In this document: piece by piece, positions 508 to 57,752 of the stretch
Position numbering within the stretch: position 1 is the stretch's first letter
Layout of the letters: each line of letters begins with the position of its first letter
Assembly: GCA_004431415.1 (NCBI GenBank)
Contig: QPMI01000127.1
Location: 186,001 to 250,000 of the forward strand
Length of the DNA: 64,000 bases
Source: Cyanophora paradoxa CCMP329
Taxonomy: Eukaryota > Plantae > Glaucophyta
Direction: 5' to 3'
Program-made: the position numbers and the translations under genes
Notes under the pieces: generated by a model
The model's database searches: none
Told to the model about the DNA's origin: nothing
Seen by the model: the letters and a program-made list of their open reading frames with translations, nothing else

Positions 508-572
508 CGCCAACCCGAGCCGCCAACCCCAGCCGCCAACCCCAGCCGCCAACCCGAGCCCGCCAACCCGAG
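508..572. repeat. Tandem ~13-bp repeat GCCAACCCSAGCC, 5 copies
   Basis: Directly visible in the intergenic region. Confidence 0.8.
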
Positions 573-5382: not shown

Positions 5383-6036
5383 ATGCAAGGGGCAGAGATG
5401 GACGTGTACATCCCGCCGCATGATGGCGCGTGGAGGGGCGCCGGCCGCCGCACCCTGGTCTTCGCGGACGTGGCGCGCGAGGCCGCGGCGCTCATCCGCG
5501 CCGGCGGGCTGCGCATCGAGGACGACGAGTACTCCCAGGTGGAGCCGGCGAGCTACGAGCCGCTTGCGCGCATAAACGAGCTGGGGCTCGTCACGTTCGA
5601 CAGCCAGGACGCGCGGCCCTCGGCGGGCGACACGGAGAGGCCGTACGTCGAGGGGTTCATGTTGCCCGGTGCCGCCGAAGCCTTCGTGGACGCGTTCAAC
5701 GCCTCCACCGACAAGGTGGCGCTCCTCCTGCACCCCAGCTCGGACCACGCCTGGGCCTCCCGGGTGATCGTGACTCGTCGAGGCGATGGGCACCCCGAGT
5801 CGTGGCAGCAACTGCGCATCGACCCCGAGTCCTACGCGTGGCAGCAGCGCCGGATGGGCCTCCGCCCCGGCGGCTCCCTCCTGGTGGCGTGCATCGACCC
5901 CAAGTGGGGGCGGCGGGCCACCGGGCCCGGCGGGCTCTTCGGCGACGTCGTTCGCGTCCTCGAGGGGCTCGCGGGGGTCCCGCCCTCGCGCTCGGCCGCC
6001 GCCGCGCGCGTCCGCCGCCGGTCCCGCCGGGGGTAG
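5383..6036 (+). CDS. Hypothetical protein with short Arg tail
   Basis: LARINELGLVTFDSQ...ERPYVEGFM; ends AAAARVRRRSRRG. Confidence 0.75.
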   Translation: MQGAEMDVYIPPHDGAWRGAGRRTLVFADVAREAAALIRAGGLRIEDDEYSQVEPASYEPLARINELGLVTFDSQDARPSAGDTERPYVEGFMLPGAAEAFVDAFNASTDKVALLLHPSSDHAWASRVIVTRRGDGHPESWQQLRIDPESYAWQQRRMGLRPGGSLLVACIDPKWGRRATGPGGLFGDVVRVLEGLAGVPPSRSAAAARVRRRSRRG

Positions 6037-6398: not shown

Positions 6399-7235
6399 AT
6401 GAAGCGCCCCCTCGAGCTCAAGCCGCCCTTCGACCTGACCCCCGCCGCGCCCCCGCCCGAGGCGTCCCTGCTGGGCGTCCTGGGCGCGGTCAGCCCCGAT
6501 GTCTTCGGGAAACTTTCGCCCGAATCGCGGTGCGCGCTGACCCAAGTGAACCAGCACACGCGGCGGACCTACCCGGAGTACGAGCAGGCCCTGCACGGCG
6601 CGTGGGCGCGGCACGGCGCGGAGCTGGCCGCTTGGCGCGCCCGGCGCGCTCGGGTGGCGCTGGGGAACGCGCTCAAAATGTTCGCGACGCTCGACGAACG
6701 GACGGAGGTCGCGTTTCCGAAGATCGAGCGGACGCTGCCGGATATCAGGGGCAATCTCCGACTGGCGATCAGGGCACGAGCGCCCGTGCGGGCGGCGTTC
6801 GCCGCCGGCGCCACCCCCACCGCCGGCGAGCTCCTCGCGTGCGTCCAGGCCCTCAGGGTTCTGTATACCAGCGCGGCCGCCGAAGCCGGGATGCTCGAGC
6901 TCAAGTTGTCACAGGGCAAGCGCGGCTCGGTCTGGACCGAGATCTACAGGAGGCAGAACGACCTTGCCCAGCGGACCCTCGCCCTCCTCGGCGCGGGGGA
7001 GGTCATCGCGCGCCTCGGGCCCGCGACTCGCCTTACGATCACGGAGTTAACTCCGCCCTCCATGGCCGACTGGGAGGCCGCGAACCCCCGCCCCGTGCCG
7101 CCCCCGCGCCCCCTCGTCGGTCCCGCCCCGGGCCCCGCCGCCGCCCGGCGCTACTCCCGCCGCAAAACCCGCCGCTCCAGGCGCACCCGATCGCGGTCCT
7201 CTCGTCCGCGTCGCCGCCGGACCCGCGGGGGGTAG
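6399..7235 (+). CDS. Divergent F-box-like/WEAANP family protein with Arg tail
   Basis: SLLGVLGAVSP...ALTQVNQHTRRTYPEY; DWEAANPRPVPPPRP; AAARRYSRRK tail. Confidence 0.8.
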   Translation: MKRPLELKPPFDLTPAAPPPEASLLGVLGAVSPDVFGKLSPESRCALTQVNQHTRRTYPEYEQALHGAWARHGAELAAWRARRARVALGNALKMFATLDERTEVAFPKIERTLPDIRGNLRLAIRARAPVRAAFAAGATPTAGELLACVQALRVLYTSAAAEAGMLELKLSQGKRGSVWTEIYRRQNDLAQRTLALLGAGEVIARLGPATRLTITELTPPSMADWEAANPRPVPPPRPLVGPAPGPAAARRYSRRKTRRSRRTRSRSSRPRRRRTRGG

Positions 7236-7261
7236 ATTTTCCGCATCTACAGTATCGCGCA

Positions 7262-8125
7262 ATGGACCGAAAGCGGCCTTCGCAGCCCCCCCCGTCCCTC
7301 GATCGCGACCTGGCCCCCGCCACATCCCCGCCCCCGGCGTCCCTGCTGGGCGTCCTGGGCGCGGTCAGTCCCCTTGTCGCGCGGAACATGTCGCCCCGAT
7401 CGCAGTACGCGATCTCCCAGGTAAGCCGGCATACCCGCCAGACGTACCCCGAGTATCAGCAGCCCCTGCGCGAGGCGTGGGCGCGGTTCAACGACGAGCT
7501 GTCGGCTTGGCGCCTCCGCCGCGCTCGGGCGGCGCTGGACGACGCATTTGGTAAGTTGGTGGTCGTCACCTTTGACTTAAACCGCCGCGTTCGATCTGCC
7601 GAGGAGCTCGTTCTCGGAAGACAGGACAGCAGGGAGGTCCAGGAGGCCCTACAGAGTTTGAAGGCGGCGAGGGTGGGTGTGAACGGGCCCGTATTCCCCT
7701 CGGCCGGCGAGATCCTTGCGTTTGCTCAGGCGATCGTGACGCTGTACGAGCGAGCCCTCTTGCTTTCGGCTCGGAGAGACCGGGAGTGGGCGTATCCAGG
7801 GTGGGTGGGCTCGAGCACCATCACCGATCGCTTCGACCTCGAGCTTTCCATGGCCAGGAGTGTCCTTGACACGCTCCAAATGGGGGAAGTCATTGCCCGC
7901 CTCGGTCCCGATGTCCGACCGGTTAGAGCTCGAGAGAGCATAAATTTAGACGACTGGGAGGCCGCGAACCCCCGCCCCGTGCCGCCCCCGCGCCCCCTCG
8001 TCGGTCCCGCCCCGGGCCCCGCCGCCGCCCGGCGCTACCCCCGCCGCCAAACCCGCCGCAACTCTCGCTCCAGGCGCACCCACCCCCGCCGCTCTCGCCG
8101 GTATCGCCGTTCCCGGCGTCGCTAG
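7262..8125 (+). CDS. Tandem paralog of 6399-7235
   Basis: Same N-terminal block; identical 87-bp block (7068-7154 vs 7952-8038); AAARRYPRR tail. Confidence 0.8.
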   Translation: MDRKRPSQPPPSLDRDLAPATSPPPASLLGVLGAVSPLVARNMSPRSQYAISQVSRHTRQTYPEYQQPLREAWARFNDELSAWRLRRARAALDDAFGKLVVVTFDLNRRVRSAEELVLGRQDSREVQEALQSLKAARVGVNGPVFPSAGEILAFAQAIVTLYERALLLSARRDREWAYPGWVGSSTITDRFDLELSMARSVLDTLQMGEVIARLGPDVRPVRARESINLDDWEAANPRPVPPPRPLVGPAPGPAAARRYPRRQTRRNSRSRRTHPRRSRRYRRSRRR

Positions 8126-12339: not shown

Positions 12340-13149
12340 ATGGGCGACGCCCAGGGCAGAAGCGCCCTGCTGGGGCTTGCAGCGACCAACGGGGTCGGCG
12401 AGGACTTCCTCCGGTCCGTGGACCCCACCGCCCTCGCCGCGCTCGGCCAGACGTGCCGGGGGATGAGGGCTGCGACGCGCGAGCAGCTCGAGAGGGCCCG
12501 CGCCGACTACCCGCGCCTTCTTGAAGAGTGGAGACAGAAGAAGGCTCATCGCGAGATTAGTCAAAGGTTGCTCGATAAGCTCGCGACCTTCCTCCGGGAT
12601 CTGAGGGAGACAGACAGCTGGGCGCGACTCTTAGAAGGGGCTGAATTCCTCCGAAACCGGGAGAGGGGAGGCGCGGCACTCGCCGAAGAGGTGCGAATGC
12701 TCGCGGATCAGCCGGAGTACCTTTTCGAAGTTGGGAAGCTGGATGCGCGGAGTCTGGTACAGCACGCCCGAGATCTTGAATGGGCGATCGGCGCAGTCGC
12801 CAGGAAACTGGCACAGTACCCCGACGGTCCAACAGGCCTTGAACGCTTCGGCAAATTCTTGGGGGGTGACTTCCTAGATTATCTGCGAAAAGTGGTGTAC
12901 GAGCTCGGCAGAGACGCAAAACCGTTTGAGACGCAGCCAGATCCGGCGTGGCTGGCGGCCAACCCGCCCCCGCCGCCCCCCTACTGGTCCCCACCCCCCG
13001 ACCCGCCGCGCTGGCCCCCGCCGCCCGAGGTGTCGCAGCCGCCGGCCCAGGCCCATCGGTTCCGTCGCCGAACCCGGCGTCGCCCAACCCGGCGTCGCCG
13101 AACCCAGCGTCGCCGCCCCCGGAGTCGCTCGGGTCGGCGACGCCGGTAG
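12340..13149 (+). CDS. F-box-like protein with WLAANP motif and Arg tail
   Basis: FLRSVDPTALAALGQTCRGMR; WLAANPPPPP; ends AHRFRRRTRRRPTRRRR... Confidence 0.8.
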   Translation: MGDAQGRSALLGLAATNGVGEDFLRSVDPTALAALGQTCRGMRAATREQLERARADYPRLLEEWRQKKAHREISQRLLDKLATFLRDLRETDSWARLLEGAEFLRNRERGGAALAEEVRMLADQPEYLFEVGKLDARSLVQHARDLEWAIGAVARKLAQYPDGPTGLERFGKFLGGDFLDYLRKVVYELGRDAKPFETQPDPAWLAANPPPPPPYWSPPPDPPRWPPPPEVSQPPAQAHRFRRRTRRRPTRRRRTQRRRPRSRSGRRRR

Positions 13150-13239: not shown

Positions 13240-13575
13240 ATGCAGCCCCTCCCCGAGCTCGTTCCGGGCGCGATGGACAGGCAGGCGTACTACGAGGGCC
13301 TGCGGGCCCGGGACCGCGCGCACAGGCTGCACGCCGAGGCCGGGCTGGCAGCAAAGTCCGCGGGCGACGAGCTGATGCGGATGTACTTCGAGCAGCAGCT
13401 CGCGGACCACGCGTGGGCGCTGAAGTCGCTGCAGCTCGCGCACCCCATCGACGTGTTCGTCCGCGAGGCGTACGCCCCCATCATCTCCGGCCTGGAGGGC
13501 CTCATCAAAGCCGCCAGCCCCCTTCCCCCGCGCCCCCCCCGCCCCCCGCGCGCCCGAAGATGCGTGTCTCAATGA
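13240..13575 (+). CDS. Small hypothetical protein
   Basis: ORF with high GC3 downstream of a dyad. Confidence 0.6.
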   Translation: MQPLPELVPGAMDRQAYYEGLRARDRAHRLHAEAGLAAKSAGDELMRMYFEQQLADHAWALKSLQLAHPIDVFVREAYAPIISGLEGLIKAASPLPPRPPRPPRARRCVSQ

Positions 13576-13601
13576 AACCAATCTCAATTCCGTTCACGAG
13601 C

Positions 13602-14423
13602 CTACACGAGGGAGGCAACCTCAAGGTCGTCTAGGGCGTCCTCGATGGCACTATCGAAGCCGCGGAGGTCGCGGTCGCTCTCCTGGTCAAAGGCGTCGCT
13701 GTCGTAGTTGAGGACGTACTGCGCCGAGCGGGAGAGCTGGTCCTGCACGTGCTGCAGAACGCGCCGGTTGCGCCGGCGGGCCGCGGCGAGCTCGTTGCCG
13801 CAGAGGGTCGCGGCGCGGGCGCAGTCGAGCAGCGAGCCGATCTCGCCGGAGATCGCGGGGTGCATCACGGGGGCGGGAAGGGCCAGGGCGAGGCTCTGGG
13901 TGGTGGAGTACATCCGCCACACCAGGCCGTTCAGCTCGGCGACGCGCTCGTCCACCTCGTCCTCGGCGGGGGGCGGCAGCGCGGCCGTGACGATCGGACG
14001 GCCGAAGTGGGGGCGGGGGGCCTTGGGGCGCGGGAGGGCGGAGCGGGCGTGGGGGCGGACGGGGTGGGGCAGCTGCGGCGAGTCGTTCCCCTGCTCCATG
14101 ATGACGGTCGCCGGCGCCCCGGGGCGGGCGCCGCGGGCGGGGTCGATGGGGATGAAGACGGAGCGCATGCCCGTGCGGGGGATGTCGACGGGGGAGGACC
14201 GGACGGCGGGGGGGGAGTCGACCGGACTTGGGGGAGTCCAGACTTGGGGCGGGGGTGGGGTCGGGGGGCGGGGGCGGGCCTCGACCTCGAGGTGGCGCGG
14301 CGTGGACTGCAGCACGCACTCCGCGAGCCACGCCTGGGCCGGCGAGGGGGGCTCGGCCGGGAGGGGGGCCACCTTGTCGAGGATGGAGGAGAGCGTGATG
14401 AGGGGGGTCGGGGCGGAGGCCAT
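13602..14423 (-). CDS. Pro-rich hypothetical protein with helical C-terminal domain
   Basis: ATG at 14423; coding-like codon use. Confidence 0.7.
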   Translation of the reverse strand: MASAPTPLITLSSILDKVAPLPAEPPSPAQAWLAECVLQSTPRHLEVEARPRPPTPPPPQVWTPPSPVDSPPAVRSSPVDIPRTGMRSVFIPIDPARGARPGAPATVIMEQGNDSPQLPHPVRPHARSALPRPKAPRPHFGRPIVTAALPPPAEDEVDERVAELNGLVWRMYSTTQSLALALPAPVMHPAISGEIGSLLDCARAATLCGNELAAARRRNRRVLQHVQDQLSRSAQYVLNYDSDAFDQESDRDLRGFDSAIEDALDDLEVASLV

Positions 14424-14492
14424 GGTCGGGGGCGCGACACGAACAAGAATGAGCCGGGTCAGGCCGGCGCCGGCGCTCGAACCTCGAAATAT

Positions 14493-14591
14493 CCAATCAG
14501 CCCGAATCACCCCCGGCGAGGGTCACGCGGGTGGGGGTACGACTCGTCACGTGACCCGAATCACCCCCGGTGCCTGGACCTGGGGTGATTC
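14493..14591. promoter_or_regulatory. CCAAT, partial dyad (14504-14537), GTCACGTGAC and a perfect-arm dyad (14558-14591), between divergent genes
   Basis: GAATCACCCC-N14-GGGGTGATTC at 14558-14591. Confidence 0.8.
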
Positions 14592-14649
14592 GGAGGTCGA
14601 GTGCCGGGCCCCGGGCCCGGCGGGTCGCCGGCAGTCTCAAGCCTCGAAA

Positions 14650-15636
14650 ATGAACATCCTCCACCCCGACCTCCCGGTCTCGAGCATGGAGTTCGTCGCC
14701 CTCGACGCCGTGCCGCACGCCGCGGCTTGGCAGTCGCACGTCCGGTTCCCCGGGATCCCCGGAATGGTCGACATGTATATCGCGCCGGCGCTGTCCCTCG
14801 AGGGCCTCGCCGCCGCCGTGATCCCCGAAGGCGCCTGCGTCGTCAAACGGTTGGACGGATTCTTCACCCTCCTGCACATCCACCGCACCCCGGTGCCCGA
14901 CCCGGAGTTCTTCGCCGAGTGCGACGCGGTCCTGAAGATGATCAACCACTGGATGTGCAGCGCAAGCGTAAAATCCTCGCAGCAGGCGGAGGTTGCGCAG
15001 TGGAAGGGTCGGCGCGCCGTCGTCGATCCCGTCGCCGACCTGTTGATCGCCGACCCGATCGCCGACCCGATCGCCGACCCCAGCGTCGACCCCAGCGCCG
15101 AACCCATCCCGCGACCGAGGCGCGCGCGCGTCAAGGCGGCCGGCGGCGGCGCGCCCGTGCTCAGGCTGCCGGTCGCGCCGCTCCTCTCGTCGGCGGACCA
15201 GACCCTTGCGGTCGACCCCGGGCGTGCCTGCGTCATCGGGCGCGTGACCGGCAACTACCTCTACTTCCACGTGCACCGCACCCCGGGCTTCGAGGACCCG
15301 CTCTTCCCAAGGTTCTTCAAAGAGTGCGCGGAGGCGATGGAGCAAATCCACTACTGGATCCGAGTCACGGAGGTCCGGACGAGGCACATGTGCGCCGTGT
15401 CGGCCTACAACTACAAGCGCGAGGACATCTCGCTCGGATCCCTGCCCCCCTGCCTCATCCAAACCAACAGCGAGAGCGCCCTCCCCGACATCAACTTCGC
15501 CGAGCCCCACGCCCTGCCCCTCCACCTCGCCCCGCCCCACCGGCTCCCATCCCCCCCCTCGCGGCCGGCCGCCCGCCCCGGGCCCGCCGACCCCAGCTCC
15601 TTGATATGTCAGATAGCGGCCGCGGGGGCAGCGTAG
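14650..15636 (+). CDS. Hypothetical protein with an internally duplicated domain
   Basis: ACVVKRLDGFFTLLHIHRTP...FFAEC...INHW versus ACVIGRVTGNYLYFHVHRTP...FFKEC...IHYW. Confidence 0.75.
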   Translation: MNILHPDLPVSSMEFVALDAVPHAAAWQSHVRFPGIPGMVDMYIAPALSLEGLAAAVIPEGACVVKRLDGFFTLLHIHRTPVPDPEFFAECDAVLKMINHWMCSASVKSSQQAEVAQWKGRRAVVDPVADLLIADPIADPIADPSVDPSAEPIPRPRRARVKAAGGGAPVLRLPVAPLLSSADQTLAVDPGRACVIGRVTGNYLYFHVHRTPGFEDPLFPRFFKECAEAMEQIHYWIRVTEVRTRHMCAVSAYNYKREDISLGSLPPCLIQTNSESALPDINFAEPHALPLHLAPPHRLPSPPSRPAARPGPADPSSLICQIAAAGAA

Positions 15637-15678
15637 ATCGTGTGATTTTTATCGAGAGTACATGTACAGTAGGCGAGA

Positions 15679-16059
15679 ATGGCGACCGGGAAGCTGATGA
15701 TGCCGGACCTAGATGACATCAAGGCCGCCGCCGCGAGCATGAGCTCGGCGGTGAAGAATAAGATCGAGGCGCTCCGGGAATCGGGCATGTCCATGGAGGA
15801 GATATGGAGGCTCGTGAGGAGCGTAGTATCGAAGGAAGTGGAGGCTGGAGAGGCTGCGAGCGTAGCAGGGTGGGGTGCGGGGGCGGTGGGGCTCGCGGTG
15901 GGCGGGGCGGGCGCGCTGGGCGCGCTCGGGTACCGCGGGTACCAGGCGATCCGCGGCCGCCTGCGGACCCGCACCCGCCGCCGGAGCGAGCTGCGCCGCG
16001 AGGTCTCAAAGTTCCGCAGGCGCCACGGGTCCCTGAAGCGCTCCAGGAGCAAGCGCTGA
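15679..16059 (+). CDS. Small protein with Gly/Ala hydrophobic segment and Arg tail
   Basis: GWGAGAVGLAVGGAGALGALGY followed by RGRLRTRTRRRS. Confidence 0.7.
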   Translation: MATGKLMMPDLDDIKAAAASMSSAVKNKIEALRESGMSMEEIWRLVRSVVSKEVEAGEAASVAGWGAGAVGLAVGGAGALGALGYRGYQAIRGRLRTRTRRRSELRREVSKFRRRHGSLKRSRSKR

Positions 16060-16674
16060 GTCTCCGGGCGCCTCGCCGCTTCCCGGTGGCCCGTCCACGC
16101 CCACCCCCATGTGCTCGCAGACGCGGGCGCAGAGGGCGATGAAGTCGCCCTCCGCGAGGTCCAGCTTGGCGGTGTTGATGTAGGTGCCCGTCAGCTGCAC
16201 GTTGCCCGGCTCGTACCCGCGCGAGCTGTCGATGCGGTCGAGGCTCGCGTTGTGTATGTGGCAGCGCAGGCCGAGGGGCGGCTTGACGTCGGTGACGAAG
16301 GTCATGGGCGCGTCCGTCAGGGCGCACCGCCCACCCTGCGCGGCCCAGAGGGCCGCGACGTCGGCGTACGAGATCGTGAACGCCCGGCCCCTGGAGCGGC
16401 CCTTGCCCTTGACGGGGTCGCAGCGGTCCCGCGCGCTCCGCCAGGCGTGCCGCAGGTAACCCTCGAGCCGCGGGTCCTCGCCGACGTTGTGCAGCCGCCA
16501 GAGCTTGCGCGGGTGCGGGTGGTGCACGTCGCAGAGCGAGTGCGTGATCTGTGCCCGTCGCCCGCAGCCCGCCCGTGCGCACGCGCGGGGCACGACCCCG
16601 TGCCTCCTGCAAACCCCGCCCTCCACCGCCGCCGTCCGCGGACAGCCCCGCACCCAGCACCAGTGACCGGCCAT
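16006..16674 (-). CDS. HNH-like endonuclease with N-terminal Cys/His zinc-finger repeats
   Basis: QGGRCALT...NASLDRIDSSRGYEPGNVQL...INTAK. Confidence 0.8.
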   Translation of the reverse strand: MAGHWCWVRGCPRTAAVEGGVCRRHGVVPRACARAGCGRRAQITHSLCDVHHPHPRKLWRLHNVGEDPRLEGYLRHAWRSARDRCDPVKGKGRSRGRAFTISYADVAALWAAQGGRCALTDAPMTFVTDVKPPLGLRCHIHNASLDRIDSSRGYEPGNVQLTGTYINTAKLDLAEGDFIALCARVCEHMGVGVDGPPGSGEAPGDSALAPGALQGPVAPAEL

Positions 16675-16731
16675 AGCGAGTCGACGTCATTAGCACAGAA
16701 CATTTACAGTGCGCGCGGGACGCGCTGTCCT

Positions 16732-17170
16732 CTACGTCTTCCTCCTCCTCTTCTTCTTCTTCGGCGCCTCCTCCTGCGCCCGGGATCAGCGGGGGCGCGG
16801 CCGCGTCTCGCCCGGCCCGTGGGCGTACCTCGCCGATGTCGACAATGGGCGCGACGGAGTCGATGTTCATGCTGGAGCTGCTCGACCTCCGCTCCGTGGG
16901 CTCGCTTCTCTCCCACAACGCTTCGAGGAGAGCGAGAGCGCGGCGGGCCGCCTCCGGATCCTCCTCGACCGCCCCCTCGCCCGCCTCCTCGCCCGCCTCC
17001 TCCTCCTCATCATCATCCTGCGCGCGGGCGCCCGTGAGGATCGGAGGTCGGGCGCGTACATCGGCCACGCACGGCGCCGGCGACGCGGGGCGGCGCGTAG
17101 CGTCGAGCAGCCGTTGCCGCAGTCGTTGCCGCAGCCTCCTCGCCCGCCCCCTCGCCCGCCTCCTCGTCCG

Positions 17171-17202
<32 letters not shown>

Positions 17203-19068
17203 GATTCGCCGGACTCGGCCGACCCCAAGCGATCCTCGAGGACCTCCTTGTCTTTCGTCACGAGCCTGGGCCTCTTCTGCGCGCCCTGTAAAGAGTAAAG
17301 AGAGGCGGCGGTGGCGGGCGGGGGACAGGTGCACCCTCCTCTGGGCGGCGCCAATCCGGTCCTGTGTCAGCTTCTTCTCGACCGCTTCGAGTCTCTTCTG
17401 TTTCTGCAACGGAGCGGCTCAGCATTTTCCGGCGGAGGGCGGGCGGCAGGCTCGCCACGGTAGACAGGTTGTCCCGGTCCGCCCCGGCCGCCTTCACCAG
17501 CCCCGCTTTCACCAGTGCCTCGGTGGCGGCAGCCGACATCGCGCTGAATTTATTCCCCCACCTGCCCCCCTTCTTGCCCAGCGGGAAGTTGTGCAGCTCC
17601 GTCACCCTGTCGCCTTTTCATTCAACGGGCCCCAGGGCGGGGCTGGGCGCGTACACTTCCGATGTGATGGGCCCGTCCCTGATGCTTTCGAAGAGCCGCC
17701 GCACCGGCTCTTCCATTTCACTCTTCTTGCCCATCCTGACGTAGCACTCCTGGATGCCCGCCGAGAAGTCCTGCGCGCGCAGTCACAGGGCGCGGAGGCG
17801 GTCGGAGGAGGGCGAGCGCACATGGTCTGGGCTGCTGTTGCGGATGAGGTAGCAGTCCAGGAGGAGGCGGATTTGCTGGCGGGCTTTCTTGGTGGAGAGG
17901 CCTTCGTCCCCGATTCCGGCAAGTTGTAAGAGCTCGTCGCCGAAGAACGCCCTCAGATGGGCGAGGTCGCCGCCGCCGAAGTACTTCTTGAAGTGGGAGG
18001 GGAAGCCTGTGTTGCCGCTGTAGAACGACCGGAGGATTGGAGCCCAGTACGGCGTGTCCGTCTTGGGCAGATGCTCCACTAAAGCTGTCTTGATTGTTTG
18101 AAACGCCGTCCTGTTCGAAGGGTATCCGTAAGTCAGGGCGGCCGCGGGCGGCGGGCACAGGCGCACAAAAGATCCGGCTCCAGGACGGGGTTGTACTTGC
18201 CGCGCACATCCTCCGGGCTCTTCGGCTCCCTGCCGAGAGCAGCGAACGGTGAGGCGGGCGGCGCGCGGGCGGCGCGCGGGCGGCCCGGGCGGCACTTTGG
18301 CTGGCTGCGCTTTTTCGCAGACGCCGCCGCCGTCGCCGCCGTCGTCTGAATGGCGCCGGGGGGGCTGCGCAGAATCAGCGGCGGCGCGCGCAGGGTGGCG
18401 GGGCGGGGCGCGCTACACTGGGAACCATTCGCCGACGCCGAATAGCTTGTCGCTGTCGCAGCAGCAGAAGATCACTGGCTGCTTGCTCTGATCGAAAAGT
18501 GGGCCGCATCCCCATGGACACGTCAGCTGCTTCCCGGCGAGATGCCCGATATAGTGCGCCGTTGCCATGACGACGTGGTGCGTGTGCTGCGCGCCCGCGC
18601 TGCCCTCGGCGGCGCAGCAGGGGCCCGTGGCGGTCGCGAACAGCAGAGTATCGTTGCCCGTTCCGAAGCGCGGCAAGCTCCTGGCTCGCGTGTATGCGGC
18701 GACACCGAGCAAGGCTGCCGTCGCGGCGTCAGCTCTCTACCGCGCCCGGCGCGGCGGAGTCTCACCGTCGCGGAAGGCGTGCTGCGCGACCGGAGCGTGA
18801 GTGGCGGCGCGCGGCGGCGCGCGCGGCGTGCGCGGCAGCGAGGGCGTACATTCGCAGGGAAGTCGGCGAAGGCCGAGAGCTCCTCCACGGTGTGCGTGCC
18901 AGCCACGGAAAGAACGGGCTGTGGGACATCCACGAAGTTCGTGCGGTTGGCCAGCTGCCCCGTCGGAAACGGTGGAGGGAACAATGGACCACAATGCGTG
19001 GCCGCTGGCGCTGGATCGGCCGAGGAGGGGCCCGCGCGCACGATGAGCGCGCTCTCATCGTCGGACAT
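16732..19068 (-). CDS. Spliced gene, 12 exons and 11 GT-AG introns; acidic protein ending in NLS PKKKKRRRKT
   Basis: Introns: 18782-18849, 18715-18765, 18365-18416, 18230-18295, 18111-18166, 17771-17821, 17607-17654, 17404-17458, 17286-17334, 17018-17072, 16774-16828. Joining the exons gives one open frame from MSDDESAL to the TAG at 16732. Confidence 0.8.
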
Positions 19069-19427
19069 CGATGCGCGTGACGCGCCGGGCGGGCTGGACA
19101 ACGCTAGCCGCGATGGGAACTGATGCAAACAAGGATACGCGCTTGGCGCTGCTGCCGGGGGCGCTGAATGAACGCGATACGTTGCTCGGTCGCCAACGGG
19201 GTTAGAGGTCGGGTTAGCGACTCGGGTTGTAACCAACGCCGTACCCCCCTCTTCGAACCCGCCCGAGGGTATTTCGGACTTAGACGGCGCAGAGAATGCC
19301 GTGGATGCCGACGCTTACCGGACCCCGAGTGCGCCCCGAGGCCCGCATGCCGACAGTCAGTGCACTCGATTAAACAGGCGCCGCTGTCCACTACTTCTAC
19401 TTCTAGGCCGCTATGCACCACTTCTGC

Positions 19428-21809
19428 CTACTTCTTCTTCGCTGTCTCCATCATCTTCGTGACGATCTTGCCATAATCTTTGAAGGAAGCTAACATGTAC
19501 CCTATGCTGCCGCGCTTCGCCTTGCTGAGATCACCGAGCTCGTCCCACACCCCGCTGCGATGGGGGAGCCCAAGGAAACGCACGAGGGTGCCGTACCCAT
19601 CGAAAGCACTCAGCGTGGTCTCGAACGCATTCGCGATCGGTCCGAGATCGCGGACAGTGGTCGCCGCCTTCAGTTGCTCGCAGAGCTTCGCACACTGAGC
19701 AGGCATGGCGAGGCCGAGCACCTTCTTCGCGTCTACGATCGCCTCCAGCAGGCGGGTGACGCGTTCGGCGTTCTTGAACTCGCCCGCCCACGCCGCTGCG
19801 GCAGGGTAAGGGCGGCGCTCGTGGCGTCTCGGAGGGCGTGCGCACGGAGTTCGACCCGGGCCTTCTTCGATTTCGGTCCCGTCGTGGCCGCGGAGGACGC
19901 GGCGCGCTTGGACCTGCTTGCAGTCGGCGGGCGGTGGGCGCAAGCTTGGGCCGGCATGGGCGCACGGGGTCGTGACCGCCTGGCCCTCCGCCTCGCCCTC
20001 CGCCTCGCCCTCTGACTCCTCCGAGGACTCCTCTGCCGCCCCCTCCGCCGGCTCCTCCGCCGGCTTCCCCACCGGCTTCCCCGCCGCCGCCGCCTTCGCC
20101 GCCGCCGCCTTCGTCTCCTTCGCCGGCGCCTGCGTCGCCTCCTTCGCCGCCTCCTTCGCCTCCTTCGCCTCCTTCGCCTCCTTCTCCGCCTCCTTCGCCG
20201 CCTTCGCCTCCTTCTCCGCCTCCTTCGCCGCCTTCGCCTCCTTCGCCGCCTTTGCCTTTGCTGCCGCCGCCGCCGCCTTCCCCGGCGACGTCCCCGGCGA
20301 CGCCTCCACCGCCTGGAAGCTTTCCGGCGGCGACGTCGTCACGGTCGGCGCCTGCTCACAGCTTCAGACCTTTGCGGCAGGGCAGGGGCGTGCCCGGCGC
20401 ACCCTGCGGCCCGTCTGCTCGGCCCGCGCCGTCAGCGCCGCCGTCGTTCTGTCGAGCTCCCCCTTGATCTTCTCAAAGTCCTCCTGTGCATTGGGCGCGT
20501 TATGTCAAGTGAACGTGGCCAGGGGCGCGGCGGCACCTTTTCCTCGTCCTCGTCCGCGGCGTCCGTCGGCTGTCGTCCTTGTTAGCGAATGCACCCGGGG
20601 GGCTCGAGGGGCGGGACCTCTTCTTCGCCCTCGTCCTCCGGTCCCGCATCGGCCGCTGCCGCCGGCGTGACCGCTGCCGCCGGCGTGACCGCCCCCACCT
20701 CCGTCCCCGCCTGCAACCCGGAGGTTCAGACGCGAACCGCCGATGGGACAGAGAGAGGCACCTGTACGGTGGGCGCGGCTGCGGGAAGCGGAGCCGCCGG
20801 GGGTATGGCCGGGGGCGCGGCTGCGGGAAGCGGAGCCGCCGGGGGCATGGCCGGGGGCGCGGCTGCGGGAAGCGGAGCCGCCGGGGGTATGGCCGGGGGC
20901 GCGGCTGCGGGAAGCGGAGCCACCGGGGGCTCAGGTGCGGCAGCCCCCGCCCCCCCCTTGCAGGCGGAGGGGTCAGAGCGGGCCGTCGAGCGGGAACGGG
21001 GGCAGGCACCGCTGCGGGTGCGGCGGCGGAGGCAGCGGCGGAGGCGGCGGCGGGTCCAAAGCTCCGTTCCCACCTACGCGAGCGATCAGCGGCGGGCACG
21101 GTGGGCGCGACAGGCGGGCGTACGTGTCGTCCCTGTTGGGTCTGTAATGCGCTGCCTCGGGACACTTGTGCTGGCCGAAGAACCGCGCCATGGCGGACTC
21201 CTTCGAGCAGAACTGACACAAGCCGATCGGAGGGCTGCTCGGATCAACGTCCGCCTTCAGCTCGAGCTCCCCACTGCAGGCTCCGCAGCCGAAGGCCATG
21301 TCGGCGCGCCAGTACGCGACGGCCGAGCCGGTCGGGCATGTGACCAGCCACGCCTTGCCTTCGCGCCCCCTCTGCCTGTCGCGTCGGACCAGCTCCCGCG
21401 CAAGCGCCTCGCTCTGCTCGTCGGCCTGCAAGGCGCGCGTGACCGCGGCTCTCTCTTCCTCGGCTGCGGGCGCCCGTTTGGTTTGACCGGTGCTCGACTC
21501 GACGGCGGCGGCGGCACGCGCGCACCAAGGCGACGGGCTGTTATCGCGATGGACTTGGTGATATCTCTGGCATCTTGCTCGATCGTCGCCAGAGGACCAC
21601 TGACCTTCGCCCTGTGAGCAAACTGCAAACAAGCTCAGCGCGACGGCGCGCGGCGGCGGCGAGGCAGCGACAATCACACGAACACTGTTAAGCTCCAAGG
21701 CGACGTTGAAGTCATCCTCTCTGCCTAGAACGACCAAGGGCTCGAAGATGGTCGCGCGAAACTGCGACTGGCCCACAGTCGCTGTGCGCCGCTCCAGGAT
21801 GCCGGACAT
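19428..21809 (-). CDS. Spliced gene, 11 exons and 10 introns; Cys-rich region, Pro/Ala repeats, KEAK repeats
   Basis: Introns: 21623-21683, 21464-21525, 21074-21123, 20957-21009, 20711-20761, 20570-20617, 20484-20536, 20352-20402, 19914-19965, 19796-19845. Joining gives one frame MSGILERR...METAKKK*. Confidence 0.8.
20770..20920. repeat. Coding 42-bp tandem repeat, about 3.5 copies (APLPAAAPPAIPPA)
   Basis: GGGCGCGGCTGCGGGAAGCGGAGCCGCCGGGGGYATGGCCGG units. Confidence 0.85.
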
Positions 21810-21929
21810 CGCTCTTCTACGTGCTGCCGAGCTATACGCGCCTGCTCGAGCGATGCGCGAGCGCCGGGTCTAACGGACAACAACAGCCGACGGAATGTTA
21901 CGACAGAGACACTCGGGTTTGCGACTTAA

Positions 21930-22080
21930 CAGATCACGTACCCGACTTAATAATTTTTATTGATTTCATACAACAATTAATTAATTCTTCTGATGAAATG
22001 ATATATATATATGTTGTACTTTTACATAACATAATTAATAGTTTTAATCTCATTTCCATCATTGAAATTATGGACTTGGC
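21930..22080. other. AT-rich non-coding island
   Basis: Sharp drop in GC with many AATT/TAAT motifs, between divergent genes. Confidence 0.8.
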
Positions 22081-22090
22081 ACGTGCCGCG

Positions 22091-22124
22091 GAATCACCCC
22101 TGACCCTGTGACATGGGGTGATTC
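22091..22124. promoter_or_regulatory. 34-bp dyad with perfect arms, flanked by CACGTG
   Basis: GAATCACCCC-N14-GGGGTGATTC; CACGTG at 22080 and 22128. Confidence 0.8.
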
Positions 22125-22229: not shown

Positions 22230-23159
22230 ATGGAGGAGGATCGCCCGCTCGCCGCCTGGTGCCAGTGCTTCCTTCGCAACACGGGCTACGTCATGATGGA
22301 CCCCCGGCGCGCCATCGACGGCACCAAGGTCCCTGAGCTCTTCGCCCCTCTCGATCTGCTCGTCAAGCGCTGCGCTCTCTTCATCGAGGGGCAGCGGGGC
22401 ACCCCCTTCCGGTTCGACGGGACGGGACCCGAGCTGGACTTCCAGGCCGACCTCGAGGACGCGATGCGCATCGCCGTCACTCTCGACAACTGCACCATCC
22501 TGCCAGCGGAAGAGGCGGGTGTCGTGCCGGGCGTCCCGGGCGACCAGGGCCCCATGGTGCGCGTCGCCAACCCCAGCCATCCGTGCAGTCGCGCACCCGA
22601 CGCGCCCGGCGGGTCGCGCTTCCGATGGACGCCGCTAACCCAGGATCCGTCGCGTCAGGTTCTCGGCTGCGCGCTTGTTGCGTTCGAGACGGCCTACCCC
22701 GGGCCTGGGCGCGCCCTGCCCCTCTCTAGGCTGGCCTACGACATCCCGCGCATCCGCCGGCGCGCCGACCTCTACCCCGAGAGCCTCGGCTCGTACCTCC
22801 GCCGCCGCCCCCGCACCCCGTCCCCGCCGCCAGAGCGCCGCCGCCGCTCCCGCTCCCCGTCCCCGCAGCGGCAGCGGCGCCGCCGCTCCCGTTCGCCATC
22901 TCCGGCCCGCGAGCGCCGCCGCTCCCGCTCGCCTTCTCCGGCCCGCGAGCGCCGCCGCTCCTACACCCCGTCGACGCCGAGAGGCCGCAGCCGCAGCCGC
23001 AGCCCCGCGAGGGGTCCACGGCGCGACGTCTCCCCGCTCCCCCCCGGCCCGCACCCGCCCCTCCGCCCCGTCTCGCCGGTGGCACCGGCCGCGCCCCTCG
23101 GCCGCCTGCCCTTCTCCCCCGCGGGCGAGCTTGTTGGGGGAGGCTCCCCCGCCCAGTAG
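22230..23159 (+). CDS. Protein with SR-like RSRSPSP repeats; probable in-frame intron starting at 22557
   Basis: RRRRSRSPSP repeats; GTGCGC donor at 22557, CTAAC branch at 22635, in-frame AG at 22643 or 22658. Confidence 0.7.
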   Translation: MEEDRPLAAWCQCFLRNTGYVMMDPRRAIDGTKVPELFAPLDLLVKRCALFIEGQRGTPFRFDGTGPELDFQADLEDAMRIAVTLDNCTILPAEEAGVVPGVPGDQGPMVRVANPSHPCSRAPDAPGGSRFRWTPLTQDPSRQVLGCALVAFETAYPGPGRALPLSRLAYDIPRIRRRADLYPESLGSYLRRRPRTPSPPPERRRRSRSPSPQRQRRRRSRSPSPARERRRSRSPSPARERRRSYTPSTPRGRSRSRSPARGPRRDVSPLPPGPHPPLRPVSPVAPAAPLGRLPFSPAGELVGGGSPAQ

Positions 23160-23183
23160 TTTTTGTCAGGGTCTTGGTATGGA

Positions 23184-23513
23184 ATGGCATTCTTGCTCTC
23201 CTCTCCACTGCGCAACGCCCTCGGGGTGGAGCCACCCTCTCACTTAGCGGGTACGGCTCTGGAAGTGACGGCAAAGGCCGCGCGGGGGGCGAGGGCTTCG
23301 AGGCCCGCGGACCTGCTCTCGGTCCTCCCCGCGGGCGCCGCAACGCACGTGTTCCACGCAATCCTGGCCTATCTGGATGCCCGCCCGCGCGCAAAGGGGC
23401 TTTCGCAGAAGGAGATGACGGATGCGATAGCGGCGGGGATCCGGGAGGCCCGGCGACTGCGCTCCCTGTCCCGGCGACGACGCTCTGGCCGCCGCAGGCG
23501 CTCGCGGCGCTGA
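23184..23513 (+). CDS. Small Arg-tail protein, paralog of 23590-24099
   Basis: LAYLD...EMTDAIAAGIREARRLR versus VDYLG...EMKAAVTAGIREAQRIR. Confidence 0.7.
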   Translation: MAFLLSSPLRNALGVEPPSHLAGTALEVTAKAARGARASRPADLLSVLPAGAATHVFHAILAYLDARPRAKGLSQKEMTDAIAAGIREARRLRSLSRRRRSGRRRRSRR

Positions 23514-23589
23514 CTCGGCCCCCTAGGGCTTCGTGTCCCCTGATTAGAATTTGTCATGGGCTTGAGTATATAGTGGGGTCCACGGGACG

Positions 23590-24099
23590 ATGGTATTTTC
23601 CGGCGCGGCCAGCACGCTCCTCTCATACATACCGGGGGCGACAACCCTGGTGGGGCTGACCGCGGGGCTCCCGCCATCCGTGACGTATCTCATCCTCCGC
23701 GCTGTCGTCGACTACCTGGGCCGACGGGGAAGAACCAATCAACCCCTCACAGAGGCGGAGATGAAGGCCGCGGTGACGGCCGGCATCCGCGAGGCGCAGA
23801 GGATCCGCACGCGCTTGACGAGGCCGCGCGCCGCCGACGACAGCGGCGCTGCACCGGAGAAGTCGGGGTTACCGGAGAAGCCGCGTTCAAGCGAGAAGAG
23901 AGGGCGCTCGCGCTCCCGCCGGTCCCGTCGAAGCTCCCATCGTACCCGTCGCTCCCGTCGCAGCTCCCATCGTACCCGCCGCTCCCGCCGCGAACGCCGC
24001 TCCCGCCGCCGCTCCCGCTCGTACTCCTCGCGCGACTGGCGCTACCTGCAGCAGCTGAAGGCCCTCTCGACCGTCAGCGCCGGGGCCGACCGCGCGTGA
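23590..24099 (+). CDS. Arg/Ser-rich basic protein
   Basis: RSRRSSHRT repeats; paralogous core. Confidence 0.75.
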   Translation: MVFSGAASTLLSYIPGATTLVGLTAGLPPSVTYLILRAVVDYLGRRGRTNQPLTEAEMKAAVTAGIREAQRIRTRLTRPRAADDSGAAPEKSGLPEKPRSSEKRGRSRSRRSRRSSHRTRRSRRSSHRTRRSRRERRSRRRSRSYSSRDWRYLQQLKALSTVSAGADRA

Positions 24100-24784: not shown

Positions 24785-24818
24785 GGCGCACCCCGGGCCA
24801 GCGCCCCAGGGGTGGTTC
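24785..24818. promoter_or_regulatory. Dyad copy (partial left arm)
   Basis: ggcgCACCCC-N14-GGGGTGGTTC. Confidence 0.55.
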
Positions 24819-24829
24819 GACGCCAAGTC

Positions 24830-25100
24830 ATAATTATCGAAATTGCATAGATGTATAGGCATGTTTGCCGTCTTTTGCTGATAAAAATGCGAGTTAACAA
24901 TACTCCTGTTATGTAAAATCGAATTCTGTTAATTCCAAGTGGGGGTGTACCCCTTTCAAGTCCCAATTATCAAAATTACCAACCTTTGGCTAATTCGACT
25001 TGGAATTACTAGTTAAAATGCAAAATTAACAATAATTCTGTTATTGAAAATCGTAATTCTGAAAACTTGCACATTTTACGTACCCCATCGGACGTCATGA
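24830..25100. other. AT-rich island dense in AATT
   Basis: Repeated AATT motifs within otherwise GC-rich DNA. Confidence 0.8.
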
Positions 25101-25215
25101 TTGCGTAGTTCGCAGGCGACCGCTTTGACAGCACCGGCGAGCGAGCGGCGGCGAGCGGCGGGAAGCAGCGGCGAGCGGCGGGAAGCAGCGGCGAGCGAGC
25201 AGAGCAGCCGGCGCA

Positions 25216-27353
25216 ATGCGGTCCCGCCCGATTCGCCTCGGTAGTTTGGAGGAAGTCGACATGATTCCGAATCCTTGCTACATCGGGCGCGCCGCGCTTG
25301 AGCACAAGCCGGACTTGCATGTGCTGGTATCTAAGATGCGGGAGAAGGTGCGCACGCGGCGGCGCGTCCGCGCTGTCTCGGCTGAGCGCGCGCATCTCGC
25401 AGGCGCTTCTCCGCGAGATGTTCGACAACGGCATGGCGCCGGAGGATGTGCATCGATACCAGCTGTATCGGGCGGCGCGGATCCACAAGCTGATCGACCC
25501 GGCCGTCGAGGAGAGCGCGTACTACGTGGCGAGCTACGCAAAACCCGCAGACGTGTTCTACTGCCAGACTTGCTTTACGCCCTGCTCGGCGGGTTTCGTG
25601 GCGCTGGAGGTCTGCGCCGGCTGCAGAGGGTCCGTGTTGCTCGGCTGCGAGATCTCAACGGCGCGCTCGGCCGCTGTCAAGACCCAGCCTACCTGGTCCC
25701 ATATCGCCGCGTTCCGACAACCTTGGGAGACCACGTTTGAGCTGTTCAAGCTCCTATACGATGCCTGCCGTAATGTGCTCTGGCGCCTCGGATACTCGGT
25801 GGCGGCGACCGAGCTCTGCAACGCCGTGCGCCCCTGACCCCTCTGCGCACTCCTGCTGCCGTGACGCGCGCCAGCAGCTTCATCGCGCATTCCCCGAGCT
25901 AGGAGGCTGGGACATGGCCAACCTTGTCTCCCTTATCGGCACGGGAACCAAGGTCTCCTCCCGCGCCCTCGCCCCGCCCCCGCCCGCGCCCCCCCTGGCC
26001 GACGTGTGTCGCAGAAACCGCTCAAGATCGGCGGGCCCGACGACTCCGACGACTCCGGCGGGCCCGGCGGCTCCGGCGGGCCCGACGACTCCGGCGGCTC
26101 CGGCGGGCACCCTGCCGCTAGCCCGACGGACCCGCCCGCCCAGCAGACGCCCCCGCCCCGCACCCGCATCCTTCTCCGCTCCCCCGCCACCGGCTCCGGG
26201 GGCGGCTGCCCCGTCTCAGGCCGAGGTTCGCCCCGCCCCTCCCGCAGCCCGCCCTGGCTCACGCCCCCGCAGACTGATGTTATCACCGTCACCTCATCGG
26301 ACGACGACGGCCGGGGGCCGCCGCCCCCCGTCCGCCGGGCTCCGCCGCCCCCCGCCCGCCCGCTGTTCCCCACCGCCCGGACGACGCGGGTGTCGGTCGC
26401 TCGCTCGCCGGGGCCGACGCCGCCGGCCAAGGCGACCGCGGCCAAGGCGACCGCGGCCAAGGCAGCCGCGCGAAAGCGCGCCCGAGGGGCGGCCGCGGGC
26501 ACGCGCCGCAAGGCCGCGGGGGCAGGCGGAGGGCGGCGCCTGCCCCCGCCCCGCCAAGAAGACGAAGAAGGCGGCGGCGGAGGAGGAGGAGGAGGAGGAG
26601 GACGACGAGGATGCGGAGGAGGACACCAAGGAGGGCAGCGGCAGCGAGAGTGGCGGCGAGGGCGGCGAGGGCGGCCCCGCCGCAGGCGGCGGGGCGAGCG
26701 ACGACGACGGCGGCGACGGCGACGACGACGGCGGCGACGGCGACGACGACGGCGGCGACGACGGCGGGGGCGCGCAGGAGCGCGAGGCCGCCCCCGCCCG
26801 TCCCGTCCGTCCCGCGCAGCGGCCGTCGCCGCGGTCTCTCGCATCTCGGCGAGCCTCCAGGCGTCGGAGCTGGCTCCGCCGCCCCCCCGGAGGCGGCGGC
26901 GGCGATCCCGCCCCCGAGGAGGTGACTCTTTCCGGCCGCCCCCGCATCGTCCCCGCCGCCGCGCCGCCGCCGCCCTTCGCGCCGCCGCCGAGCAAGGCGG
27001 AGGTGCGGCGCAAGGCGGCCTGGGACATCCTGTCACAGCTGCCGGGGATTCTCGGCGCCCGCACGCCCGAGGAGGTCTCGCTCCAGGGGAAACGGGGCCT
27101 TGTATCGGTCTTCCGGCACATCCTCTGGGCCTGCGAGCCGCTGGCGAAGGCCACGCGTGGCGCCCGAGAGATTATGGACCGCGCCCGCAAGCTCACATCC
27201 CCCGAGGAAGTCTACAAGGAGCTCATCTGGGCAACCCGCGTCGTGGGCCCGGATCAACTGGCGGATCCGTGCACGTTCTCGCGGCTCTTCTCTCTGTACG
27301 ATTCGAAAGAGCTCGTCCTAGGTCACCTAGCTCGTGTAGATCCGGTAGACTGA
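25216..27353 (+). CDS. Spliced gene with at least 4 introns; CxxC motifs and acidic tract
   Basis: Introns 25348-25402, 25826-25874, 25953-26014 and 26226-26272 each join frames correctly. Junctions near 26100-26160 and 26480-26550 are unresolved; start may be 25261. Confidence 0.65.
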
Positions 27354-33969: not shown

Positions 33970-34544
33970 GTGTCCTGCGGGGCCGCCGGCGCCGCGACCG
34001 CCGCGAACGGCCCGCCCGCCCCGTCGATCTTTCGGCCTTGCGCCACCGCCCGGCGCACGACCGCCGCGCACATGCGCAGAAAGGCCTCGGTGGGCAGGTC
34101 GCTCTTCGCCGAGTTGACCTGGGCGCACACGAGGTGCACGTTGTCGCGGGTGTACCCCCCTCTCGAGTCGATGCGGTCGAGGGAGGCGTTGCGGGGGTTC
34201 AGCTGCGTGCCGCGCCCCCCCTTGCCGCACCCGCCGGTGTGCGTCATGGGGAGCCCTGTGAGGGCGCAGCGCCCCCCCTGCGCCCGCCACATCGCGTGCA
34301 CGTCCTCCGCGGAGATGCCCAGCTCGCGCTTCCGCTGCGCGCACCTCGCGCGCGCCTGCATGTACACGCACTGCAGGTACGACCGCAGCCGCGAGCGGTA
34401 CCGCCGCTCCACCTCCCGCTGGCACGACTTGCAGTTCCACTGCAGGCCGTCGCGCGAGAGGGTCGCCTTGTGGAACTCGCCCCGCGGGAGCGTCCTCTGG
34501 CACCCGCCGCACTGCTTTGACTCGCCGGGGGCCGGGGGCGACAT
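33963..34544 (-). CDS. HNH-like endonuclease with N-terminal CxxC zinc finger
   Basis: CGGC...CKSC; QGGRCALTG; NASLDRIDSRGGYTRDNVHLVCAQVNSAK. Confidence 0.8.
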   Translation of the reverse strand: MSPPAPGESKQCGGCQRTLPRGEFHKATLSRDGLQWNCKSCQREVERRYRSRLRSYLQCVYMQARARCAQRKRELGISAEDVHAMWRAQGGRCALTGLPMTHTGGCGKGGRGTQLNPRNASLDRIDSRGGYTRDNVHLVCAQVNSAKSDLPTEAFLRMCAAVVRRAVAQGRKIDGAGGPFAAVAAPAAPQDTQ

Positions 34545-55989: not shown

Positions 55990-57752
55990 CTACGCGGCGA
56001 AGGGGTCGCCGCCGTGGAGCTGGCGGAGCAGGTGGAGGCGCGCGGCGACGCGGTCGCCCTCCGACGCGAGCTGGGTGCCGATGACCTCGAAGTACGAGGG
56101 GTCGGCGGCCTTGGCCGCCTCGGTCTTGTCGGGGAAGAGGACGTCGCGGAGGTAGCGCTCGTGCGGGATCGGCGGCGAGGCGAAGCTGCGGCAGGAGTTG
56201 CCGTCGAACGCCTTGCCGCAGTAGCAGCGCTGCACGCGCCCCTGCTTGGTGTAGAGGAAGTAGACGTTCGAGCTGCCGTGCTCGCCCTTCTTGTTCATGC
56301 ACCAGTGTCCACGGGTCCGGACGCGGTACACGCTGCCCCGCGAGGTCCTCTTGAGGAGCACGTCGCGCACCTCGGGCGCGCCGGGCCAGCCAAAGAAGAG
56401 GTCCAGCGCGATCGCGCGGTGGCCCTCGCTGTCTGCGCCGAGCCGCTCGACGCCCTCGCCGTTCCATTCGTCCGCGCCCTGCTCGCCGGGGGCGGGCGCC
56501 TCCTCGGCCTCGTCGCCCGCCGCCCTCGTCGCCCGCCGCGAGGGCCTCCCAGAGGCCCCTGAGGCCCCCCGCGCCCGCGCTTCCGCCCCGCGGCCTGCTG
56601 CTGCTGCTGCTGCTGCGGCTGCGGCGGCGGCTGTTGCGGTTGCGGCTGCGGTTGCGGCTGCTGCGGCGCGCGGGGCCCCGCGGCGGCGCGCCTCTGCCTC
56701 TCCTCGGCGATTGCGGCCCGCTGGCGCTCCTCCTCCTCGCGTGCCCGCTGCGCCGCCGACGCCTGCTTGCGATCCCAGGCCTCCTCGGGGGGGAGCCAGT
56801 CGGGGCGGAACCACGCGGGCCTCGTGAGCGGCGTGGGGGGCTCCGCCAGATCCGTCCGGATGCTCCCCTCGCGCAGCATCACCTCGGGCTCGAGGATGCG
56901 CCCCAGCTCCTCGGGCCAGAGGCGTCCGTCGGAGCGCACGACCGCGTGGGGGCGGTACGCGCGCCCCTCGTCGATCTTACCCCTGCCGCCGCACTTGGTG
57001 CACCCCTCGCGGCGCCCCGTGCGGTCCTTGCACTCCTTGCACTTGGACATCTTGCTCATGAGGAGCATGCGCAGCCCGGAGCCGCGGAAGACGGACTCGT
57101 CGACGATCTCCCGCCACGCGGCGCGTCCCGCGCTCTGCTCCGGGAAGCGCTCCACGAGGCGCTGGACCACGCCGAGGCGGATCTCGTTCGCCATCGCCAT
57201 GTCGAAGGCGAGGCGGGGCCACAGGAGGTGGACGCCGGTCTTGATCCCTTCCGCGACCGGCTTGGACTGCGTCAGGCAGACCCAGACCGCGAGCTCCTCC
57301 GGTCCCATCGACGGGAAGAAGTCGGCGAACACCCCCTGGACGGCGCGGACGATGTCGATGACGCGGTCCTCGGGGACGCGCTCCGCGTCGACGATGTCGA
57401 GGTCCATGAAGGCGCGGCAGACCTTCGTCTTCGTCTCCACGATGTACGCGCGCCCGCCGCCGTACATGTGCGCGATCACCTTGCCGTAGAACGCGTTCAC
57501 CTTGGCCGGCTGCAGGATCTCGAGCGAGCCGCCGTCCAGCATGAGGTGCGTCACGGTGCGCCCCCGCTCGCCGGCCCGGATCCAGAGCTTCTCGGACAGG
57601 AGCCACGATCGCAGCTCCGACGGCGGACCGGAGTCCGGTCGGGGTTGCGCGAACTCGGTCATGCGTCGGGTGCGCGACGCGCCCGGCGCGGCGGCGCCAC
57701 CCTGCGCGGCCGGTGCGGTCGTCGCCCTCGCCTTCGCCCCCGCCACGCTCAT
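55990..57752 (-). CDS. NCLDV archaeo-eukaryotic primase (AEP) with C-terminal zinc-binding domain; 1-nt frameshift near 56565
   Basis: THLMLDGG, FMDLD, KTGVHLLWP, VDESVF..GLRM; second frame gives WCMNKKGEHGSSNVYF...QRCYC...C. Confidence 0.85.

Follow-up and report, generated by a model that had tools for sequence, protein, structure and literature searches.

How does a gene with eleven spliceosomal introns come to lie in a dense array of intronless genes of giant-virus type, and does it belong to the virus or to the alga in whose assembly it is found? The question is raised by a gene of Cyanophora paradoxa CCMP329, termed here G1, which is situated in the 64,000-nt stretch of DNA that we analysed (from here on, the window). 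Nucleocytoviruses are described as generally lacking spliceosomal introns, the exceptions being decaying endogenous elements, pandoraviruses and a few chloroviruses (PMC12768974).

Structure and product of G1

G1 occupies positions 16732..19068 of the minus strand, with its ATG at 19068 and a TAG stop at 16732, and is made up of 12 exons and 11 introns that encode an ORFan protein of 574-576 aa (public model tig00000492_g1506.t1). The original prediction, made from the letters alone, had proposed eleven GT-AG introns of 48-68 nt, and all of them were found on the minus strand. Intron 1 (18782..18849; 68 nt, GTACGC..CTCAC..CAG) is followed by exon 2, the predicted 16-nt micro-exon (18766..18781), which the public model also contains, and by intron 2 (18715..18765; 51 nt, GTGAGA..CTGAC..CAG), which holds an in-frame stop. 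Intron 3 (18365..18425) starts either at 18416, as first read (52 nt), or at 18425, as in the public model (61 nt), and the frame is the same in both cases. Intron 4 (18230..18295; 66 nt) is the only one that is stop-free in frame; it is succeeded by intron 5 (18111..18166; 56 nt) and by introns 6 (17771..17821; 51 nt) and 7 (17607..17654; 48 nt), both with an in-frame stop inside. Intron 8 (17404..17458) has a GT donor at 17458 (55 nt) or, in the public model, a GC donor at 17455 (52 nt), again without effect on the frame, and intron 9 (17286..17334) measures 49 nt. Lastly, intron 10 (17018..17072; 55 nt) has an ambiguous donor, 17072 or the in-frame alternative 17084, and removal of intron 11 (16774..16828; 55 nt) brings the exon with the NLS-like sequence into frame.

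Splicing yields a CDS of 1731 nt, that is, one continuous frame of 576 codons plus the stop, which ends in PKKKKRRRKT* as had been predicted. This frame depends on the introns, since retention of a single one leaves G1 truncated or frameshifted for 10 of the 11, in-frame stops are present in three of the four introns whose length is a multiple of three, and the longest stop-free run of the unspliced sense strand is 218 aa. GT-AG ends were found in all eleven introns, one of them with the GC alternative, and the strict branch site CTGAY/CTCAC in seven, as had been claimed for most; the donors GTGCGC and GTACGC, which had been called frequent, occur in five. A scan for these intron motifs gave 10 matches in G1, whereas 1000 order-2 Markov simulations averaged 0.72 and never exceeded 5; this result is partly circular because the motif set was derived from G1's own introns. 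The counts leave out the output of a home-made gene finder, which called too many introns (14 in G1 and optional ones in many ORFs). The exon-intron structure of G1 is confirmed as real.

A query with exon 6 returned a single protein, the EukProt entry Cyanophora paradoxa tig00000492_g1506.t1 (574 aa; hereafter P0001). P0001 has the same 12 exons as G1 with two donors shifted, and it equals spliced G1 exactly once the donor of intron 3 is placed 9 nt upstream (18425) and the GC donor of intron 8 (17455) is used. According to the published description, the annotation of tig00000492 was produced with BRAKER1/AUGUSTUS trained on host RNA-seq (PMC6704402). P0001 is a prediction and not a proof of splicing, and it indicates that the introns of G1 look host-like to a host-trained predictor; RNA hints might be a source of the GC donor in the public model, which was kept out of our case. 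Contigs of four runs presumed to be RNA, with the same species label and of uncertain strain, held repeat tracts only and no joint at the predicted introns; assembled contigs cannot prove absence.

Could the gene be an artefact, in that the assembly has fused host with viral DNA or that GT-AG pairs have arisen by chance in a GC-rich sequence? Chance falls far short of explaining the frame logic and the motif excess described above. Chimeric misassembly, which had been named as a way in which the prediction could fail, was not borne out either: both edges of G1 are bridged with 0 differences by contigs 13511-17196 and 17173-20200 in the two DNA runs examined (2/2), contig depth over G1 is 97-119, like that of its flanks, a comparison that had been proposed as a check, and all sampled words are present in 20 of the 20 listed DNA datasets, which may share one source. 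What speaks for an artefact is that the two bridging contigs overlap by only 23-24 nt at an acidic repeat (near 17173-17196), with no contig spanning all of G1, and that there are assembly errors nearby. In this regard, contigs of both DNA runs have one extra base relative to the window, always in G/C runs, at 26180, 26517 and 26910, all three within the intron-rich gene G3 described below, and at 14025; these sites are probably long-read errors in the window, which distort the public G3 model. A chimeric join at G1 is unlikely, and we consider an artefactual origin of any kind hardly credible.

The predicted product of G1 has a Cys/His-rich segment (exon 3), a helical core (about aa 216-429), acidic tracts (exons 10-11), a SIM-like motif at aa 556 in which IVDI is combined with acidic residues, and the C-terminal basic, NLS-like run. 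A homology search with the spliced protein, proposed as a check, was carried out with phmmer over 1.84 billion representatives and found P0001 itself only, and no known fold emerged. Exon 6 had no homologue in viral contigs and P0001 none in metagenome contigs, aa 70-420 gave no usable match in the Atlas, NCBIfam, PHROGs and PDB sequences gave no match, and Pfam returned only BUD22, on the acidic tail with an E value of 0.23. In addition, no second protein of C. paradoxa or of another eukaryote was returned for G1 from the cluster representatives searched. The single-sequence structure model of the full-length protein had a pLDDT of 39.7, and the model of exon 6, with five helices, one of 66.8; the latter had no match in Foldseek, and a Cmr5-like bundle fold considered for it was rejected, its best VIA Z of 5.0 (rmsd 4.1) being background for helical bundles. 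Any function assigned to G1 would be read from short motifs that easily arise by chance.

A nucleocytovirus-like array in the Cyanophora assembly

The EukProt record of P0001 places the window in the C. paradoxa nuclear assembly (tig00000492), and three more ORFs of the window are EukProt proteins. Apart from G1, the window is densely packed with long ORFs, most of them without introns, and its gene content includes a C962R-type AEP primase, DUF5764, a peptidase S74 tail protein, F-box and an HNH nuclease. The primase (56295..57752, minus; PF23162, E 2e-14) is a nucleocytovirus marker whose best Atlas clusters are Nucleocytoviricota, and a comparison with viral contigs gave no homologue for it; no capsid, polymerase or packaging ATPase genes were recognised within the window. 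Two features by which nucleocytovirus GEVEs are recognised were found here, a dense intronless nucleocytovirus-like array and its presence in the nuclear assembly of a eukaryote. The original prediction had left two settings for G1, an intron-dense viral gene of a nuclear phase or a host-style gene inside an endogenized virus, and as far as context goes it is the second that agrees with the C. paradoxa assembly and the nucleocytovirus-like flanks.

The intron-rich genes are interleaved with intronless genes of viral type at viral spacing: an intronless HNH/endonuclease VII-like ORF (16006..16674, minus; phrog_3322, E 4.7e-13) starts about 58 nt after the G1 stop, and intronless RS-rich ORFs lie between G2 and G3, the two other intron-rich genes. 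A second ORF with a similar SLDRIDS motif (near 34150-34200) is found at about 34100-34544 (minus). At 36776-42814 (minus) there is an unbroken ORF of 2012 aa with a C-terminal peptidase S74 chaperone domain, likely a virion fibre protein. That this ORF is unbroken suggests a little-decayed element, and a CpG o/e of 1.04-1.21 across the window suggests a young one. Long Arg/Ser-rich tails were observed on many intronless ORFs (1927-2592, 5383-6036, 6399-8125, 12340-13149, 22230-24099 and 59738-60040), several of which start with F-box-like segments, with one Pfam F-box match at 59136-59741. Additionally, an ORF of 326 aa at 34630-35610 (minus) has an HTH...PS..D pattern that, by eye, we take to resemble a JAB/MPN metalloprotease motif, and the ORF at 60085-60882 (plus) reads by eye like a SET-domain protein.

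The whole window is virus-like, with no host junction within it. We infer that the element is integrated into a host chromosome; an episome is possible. Giant endogenous viral elements have been reported in C. paradoxa, where methylation is described as enriched in genes of viral origin and most methylated genes as silent (PMC12344493). They resemble the element studied here in species and in the clustering of genes of nucleocytovirus origin, and the accessible part of that account is without contig names, intron analysis or mention of G1 (PMC12344493). Literature searches found no paper naming contig tig00000492 and, in the accessible parts of the work on viral elements of Cyanophora and glaucophytes, no study of their introns.

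Neighbouring intron-rich genes and shared elements

G1 had been described as a hidden intron-rich gene alone among intronless ones; its introns are there, but it is not alone, since two neighbours share the pattern. G2 (19428..21809, minus), the next gene upstream of G1, has 10 predicted introns of 48-62 nt and an open frame of 616 aa with CxxC pairs, acidic tracts and KKAR; eight of the introns, tested individually, are each required, and the first two are needed only as a pair. G3 (25216..27353, plus; public model tig00000492_g1510.t1), about 6 kb from G1, has at least four introns, and its product contains CxxC motifs, a SIM-like VITV with SSDDD, KKTKK and acidic tracts. The three genes are clustered within 10.6 kb, and all three proteins have a Cys-rich segment, acidic tracts (17-18 D/E in 30 aa) and basic runs, with a SIM-like motif in those of G1 and G3. 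Similarity between G1 and G3 was not detectable, a G2 exon had no match among longer proteins, a G3 exon returned no second protein of C. paradoxa or of another eukaryote, and none of the three proteins had a viral homologue. With a scorer trained on G1, 10 sense-strand matches were obtained in G2 and G3 together, where its rate in the rest of the window would predict 1.2; the P of 5e-7 for this excess is overstated because the regions and the branch rule were picked after viewing. The same scorer gave 28 scattered single matches in the other 53 kb of the window, where a few single introns are possible.

The predicted host-type introns counted here are limited to this subset of the viral array, with 25 introns in the three genes. 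Host genes of C. paradoxa are reported to have 9.2 introns per gene with a mean length of 86 bp (PMC6704402). By number, G1 (11 introns) and G2 (10) are at the host level; by length, the comparison suggested by the original prediction gives a median of 52 nt here against that host mean. Phase 0 is seen in six of the 11 G1 introns and in six of the 10 G2 introns, and GC3 (0.82-0.83) is within the range of the intronless ORFs (0.65-0.99).

Such a distribution bears on whether intronless viral genes could have gained their introns after integration, by decay of the element or by an introner burst. For endogenous nucleocytoviruses, the presence of introns has been interpreted as a sign of decay (PMC12768974), and introners are known to colonise viral elements (PMC12166617). 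However, the 25 introns are mutually dissimilar, the best local score being 44 against a maximum of 39 in 100 shuffles and driven by low-complexity CGC runs, and no terminal inverted repeats were found among them; near-identical copies with terminal repeats, by which introners are recognised, were not seen. Such dissimilarity speaks against an introner burst. Furthermore, they are packed in three genes while long neighbouring ORFs (up to the one of 2012 aa) are unbroken, and the CpG values given above suggest a young element. We judge a gain after integration to be quite improbable.

Additional elements flank these genes. TGTAA, a candidate host-type poly(A) signal, lies about 25 nt past the stop of G1 (16704..16708, minus) and also after that of G3 (27382). 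This motif is present within 100 nt after the stop in two of the three intron-rich genes (G1 and G3) versus 0 of 42 listed intronless ORFs, a difference noticed post hoc. UGUAA is known as a poly(A) signal in green algae, and no literature joining Cyanophora with UGUAA was found. Upstream, the 18-nt AACCCGAGTCGCTAACCC element is situated about 140 nt before the ATG of G1 (19211..19228, minus) and is arrayed again at 512-555, in the virus-like left part of the window. At 512-570 (plus) we observed short tandem AACCCGAGCCGCC-type repeats beside a TATA-like box; these lie upstream of the gene at the left edge of the window (minus, from 411), which encodes a product with a basic NLS-like run at its N-terminus, and the same element is found upstream of G1.

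Upstream of G2 there is a strongly AT-rich island (21871..22120, minimum GC 0.16) that holds GTTATGTAAAA at 22020-22030, and upstream of G3 another one (24801..25130, minimum GC 0.27) that holds it at 24908-24918. These are the window's only two copies of GTTATGTAAAA and its two strongly AT-rich islands; overall homology between the islands is not significant, 36 of 500 shuffles reaching the score. The G2 island is bounded by a full palindrome (22092-22123) and the G3 island by a partial one (24788-24817). This palindrome, AAYCACCCC-N14-GGGGTGRTT, is intergenic and dispersed over the viral array, with six full copies (14559-14590, 22092-22123, 43562-43593, 47033-47064, 51292-51323 and 57812-57843), partial ones at 13157 and 24788, and 21 half-sites against 0.78 expected; no exact match was found in viral contigs. 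It looks like a site for a dimeric protein, as in a promoter, an origin or a packaging element, and its owners could be divergent intronless genes rather than G2 and G3.

Origin of the intron-rich genes and comparison with known systems

The reading that we favour on balance, and hold to be somewhat probable, is that G1-G3 are a nucleocytovirus's own class of host-style genes, spliced in the host nucleus, which may act as nuclear regulators in latency or early infection. In favour of viral ownership, the palindrome and the upstream element of G1 are common to the intron-rich genes and the viral array, and no host donor gene was seen, there being no second protein for G1 or for the G3 exon. With no viral homologue returned for any of the three proteins, the case for viral ancestry is a positional one. 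Against this reading, the methylation of viral-origin genes reported for C. paradoxa, where methylated genes are mostly silent, fits a silenced relic rather than a working latent virus.

Since introns with GT/GC-AG ends and branch sites cannot be removed without the host spliceosome, mRNA of G1-G3, if there is any, must be made in the nucleus. If the genes are viral, they would be transcribed there by host Pol II, spliced, and processed at the 3' end by the host, with TGTAA after two of the three stops as the candidate signal. Their products would then be imported into the nucleus through the C-terminal basic run, and the acidic tracts and the SIM-like motif may bind histones or SUMO-marked chromatin, as the motifs suggest. 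Such binding to chromatin could keep the viral locus from being silenced, or prime it. The introns would be older than the integration, either gained during a long nuclear residence or brought in by host genes captured long ago.

G1-G3 could instead be host genes, or cargo of a host transposon, that became lodged in the viral array, by capture shortly before integration or by later insertion, kept their host introns and have no role in the virus life cycle. In intron number, intron size, phase bias and recognition by a host-trained predictor, the intron-rich genes are like ordinary host genes, which fits this explanation equally well, and nuclear proteins of eukaryotes often have acidic and basic low-complexity tails. 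A host paralogue or glaucophyte orthologue was not returned among the cluster representatives, which counts against it, although the donor may be unannotated or lost and many host genes are ORFans too. Capture with introns kept is described for the KDM4-like genes of the Amoebidium GEVE (PMC11244446), and the TET gene of the punuivirus, introduced below, probably came from a host transposon (10.64898/2026.10.09.758095). In contrast, no terminal inverted repeats surround the intron-rich blocks here, and these form two blocks that are split by viral-type genes and have upstream elements in common with the viral array. We regard lodged host genes as possible but doubtful.

The punuivirus is a latent GEVE of Chlamydomonas reinhardtii whose latency genes have spliceosomal introns, with introns in 61 of 506 genes (mean 2.5 per gene and 176 bp) and eight in the TET gene (10.64898/2026.10.09.758095). 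Both systems have a minority of host-style genes with GT-AG, C-rich introns in an intronless integrated nucleocytovirus array of a photosynthetic protist, and in architecture G1-G3 appear to match the punuivirus latency class, in that introns are confined to a subset of genes. The punuivirus introns are backed by RNA-seq, 6mA and virion production, whereas the Cyanophora locus is known from DNA sequence alone. Furthermore, the introns of the Cyanophora locus number 10-11 per gene and measure about 52 nt, they cluster within 10.6 kb and lie in ORFans, and the host is a glaucophyte.

Other systems offer partial parallels. The KDM4-like genes of the Amoebidium appalachense GEVE are likewise multi-exon, host-like and predicted to act in the nucleus, among intronless genes, but they are recognisable JmjC demethylases of host origin, some of them transcribed, whereas G1-G3 have no recognisable domain or donor (PMC11244446). 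Intron-rich mirusviruses, pandoraviruses and a few chloroviruses also carry spliceosomal introns that imply nuclear processing, with CTGAC/CYSAC-like branch sites (PMC12768974). In contrast to these, the Cyanophora context is nucleocytovirus-like (C962R-type AEP), the DNA is part of a host assembly, and the introns lie in non-structural ORFans, without enrichment in morphogenesis genes. Endogenous giant viruses with intron-bearing genes are already known; what is new is an intron density at the level of host genes, the clustering of these genes and a glaucophyte as host.

Introns in endogenous giant viruses were long put down to decay, and the punuivirus shows that they can be a mark of latency genes instead. 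The latency reading predicts what is seen here, a young-looking element whose introns are concentrated in three adjacent, probably nuclear ORFans. A more far-reaching proposal is that the giant virus of C. paradoxa is intact and latent, possibly able to reactivate, and that its latency would be run by three clustered ORFan nuclear regulators with host-level introns (10-11 each), host-type 3' signals and AT-rich promoters of their own. We think this rather unlikely. Methylome, nanopore and RNA data have already been generated for C. paradoxa, a model alga kept in culture (PMC12344493, PMC12695648), and since these data exist the question is testable by re-mapping. If G1-G3 are simply lodged host genes, the locus would be a case of ordinary host-virus gene mixing. 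If the latent-virus proposal is true, it would be a glaucophyte counterpart of the punuivirus, and the two-part latent/lytic design would have arisen across Archaeplastida.
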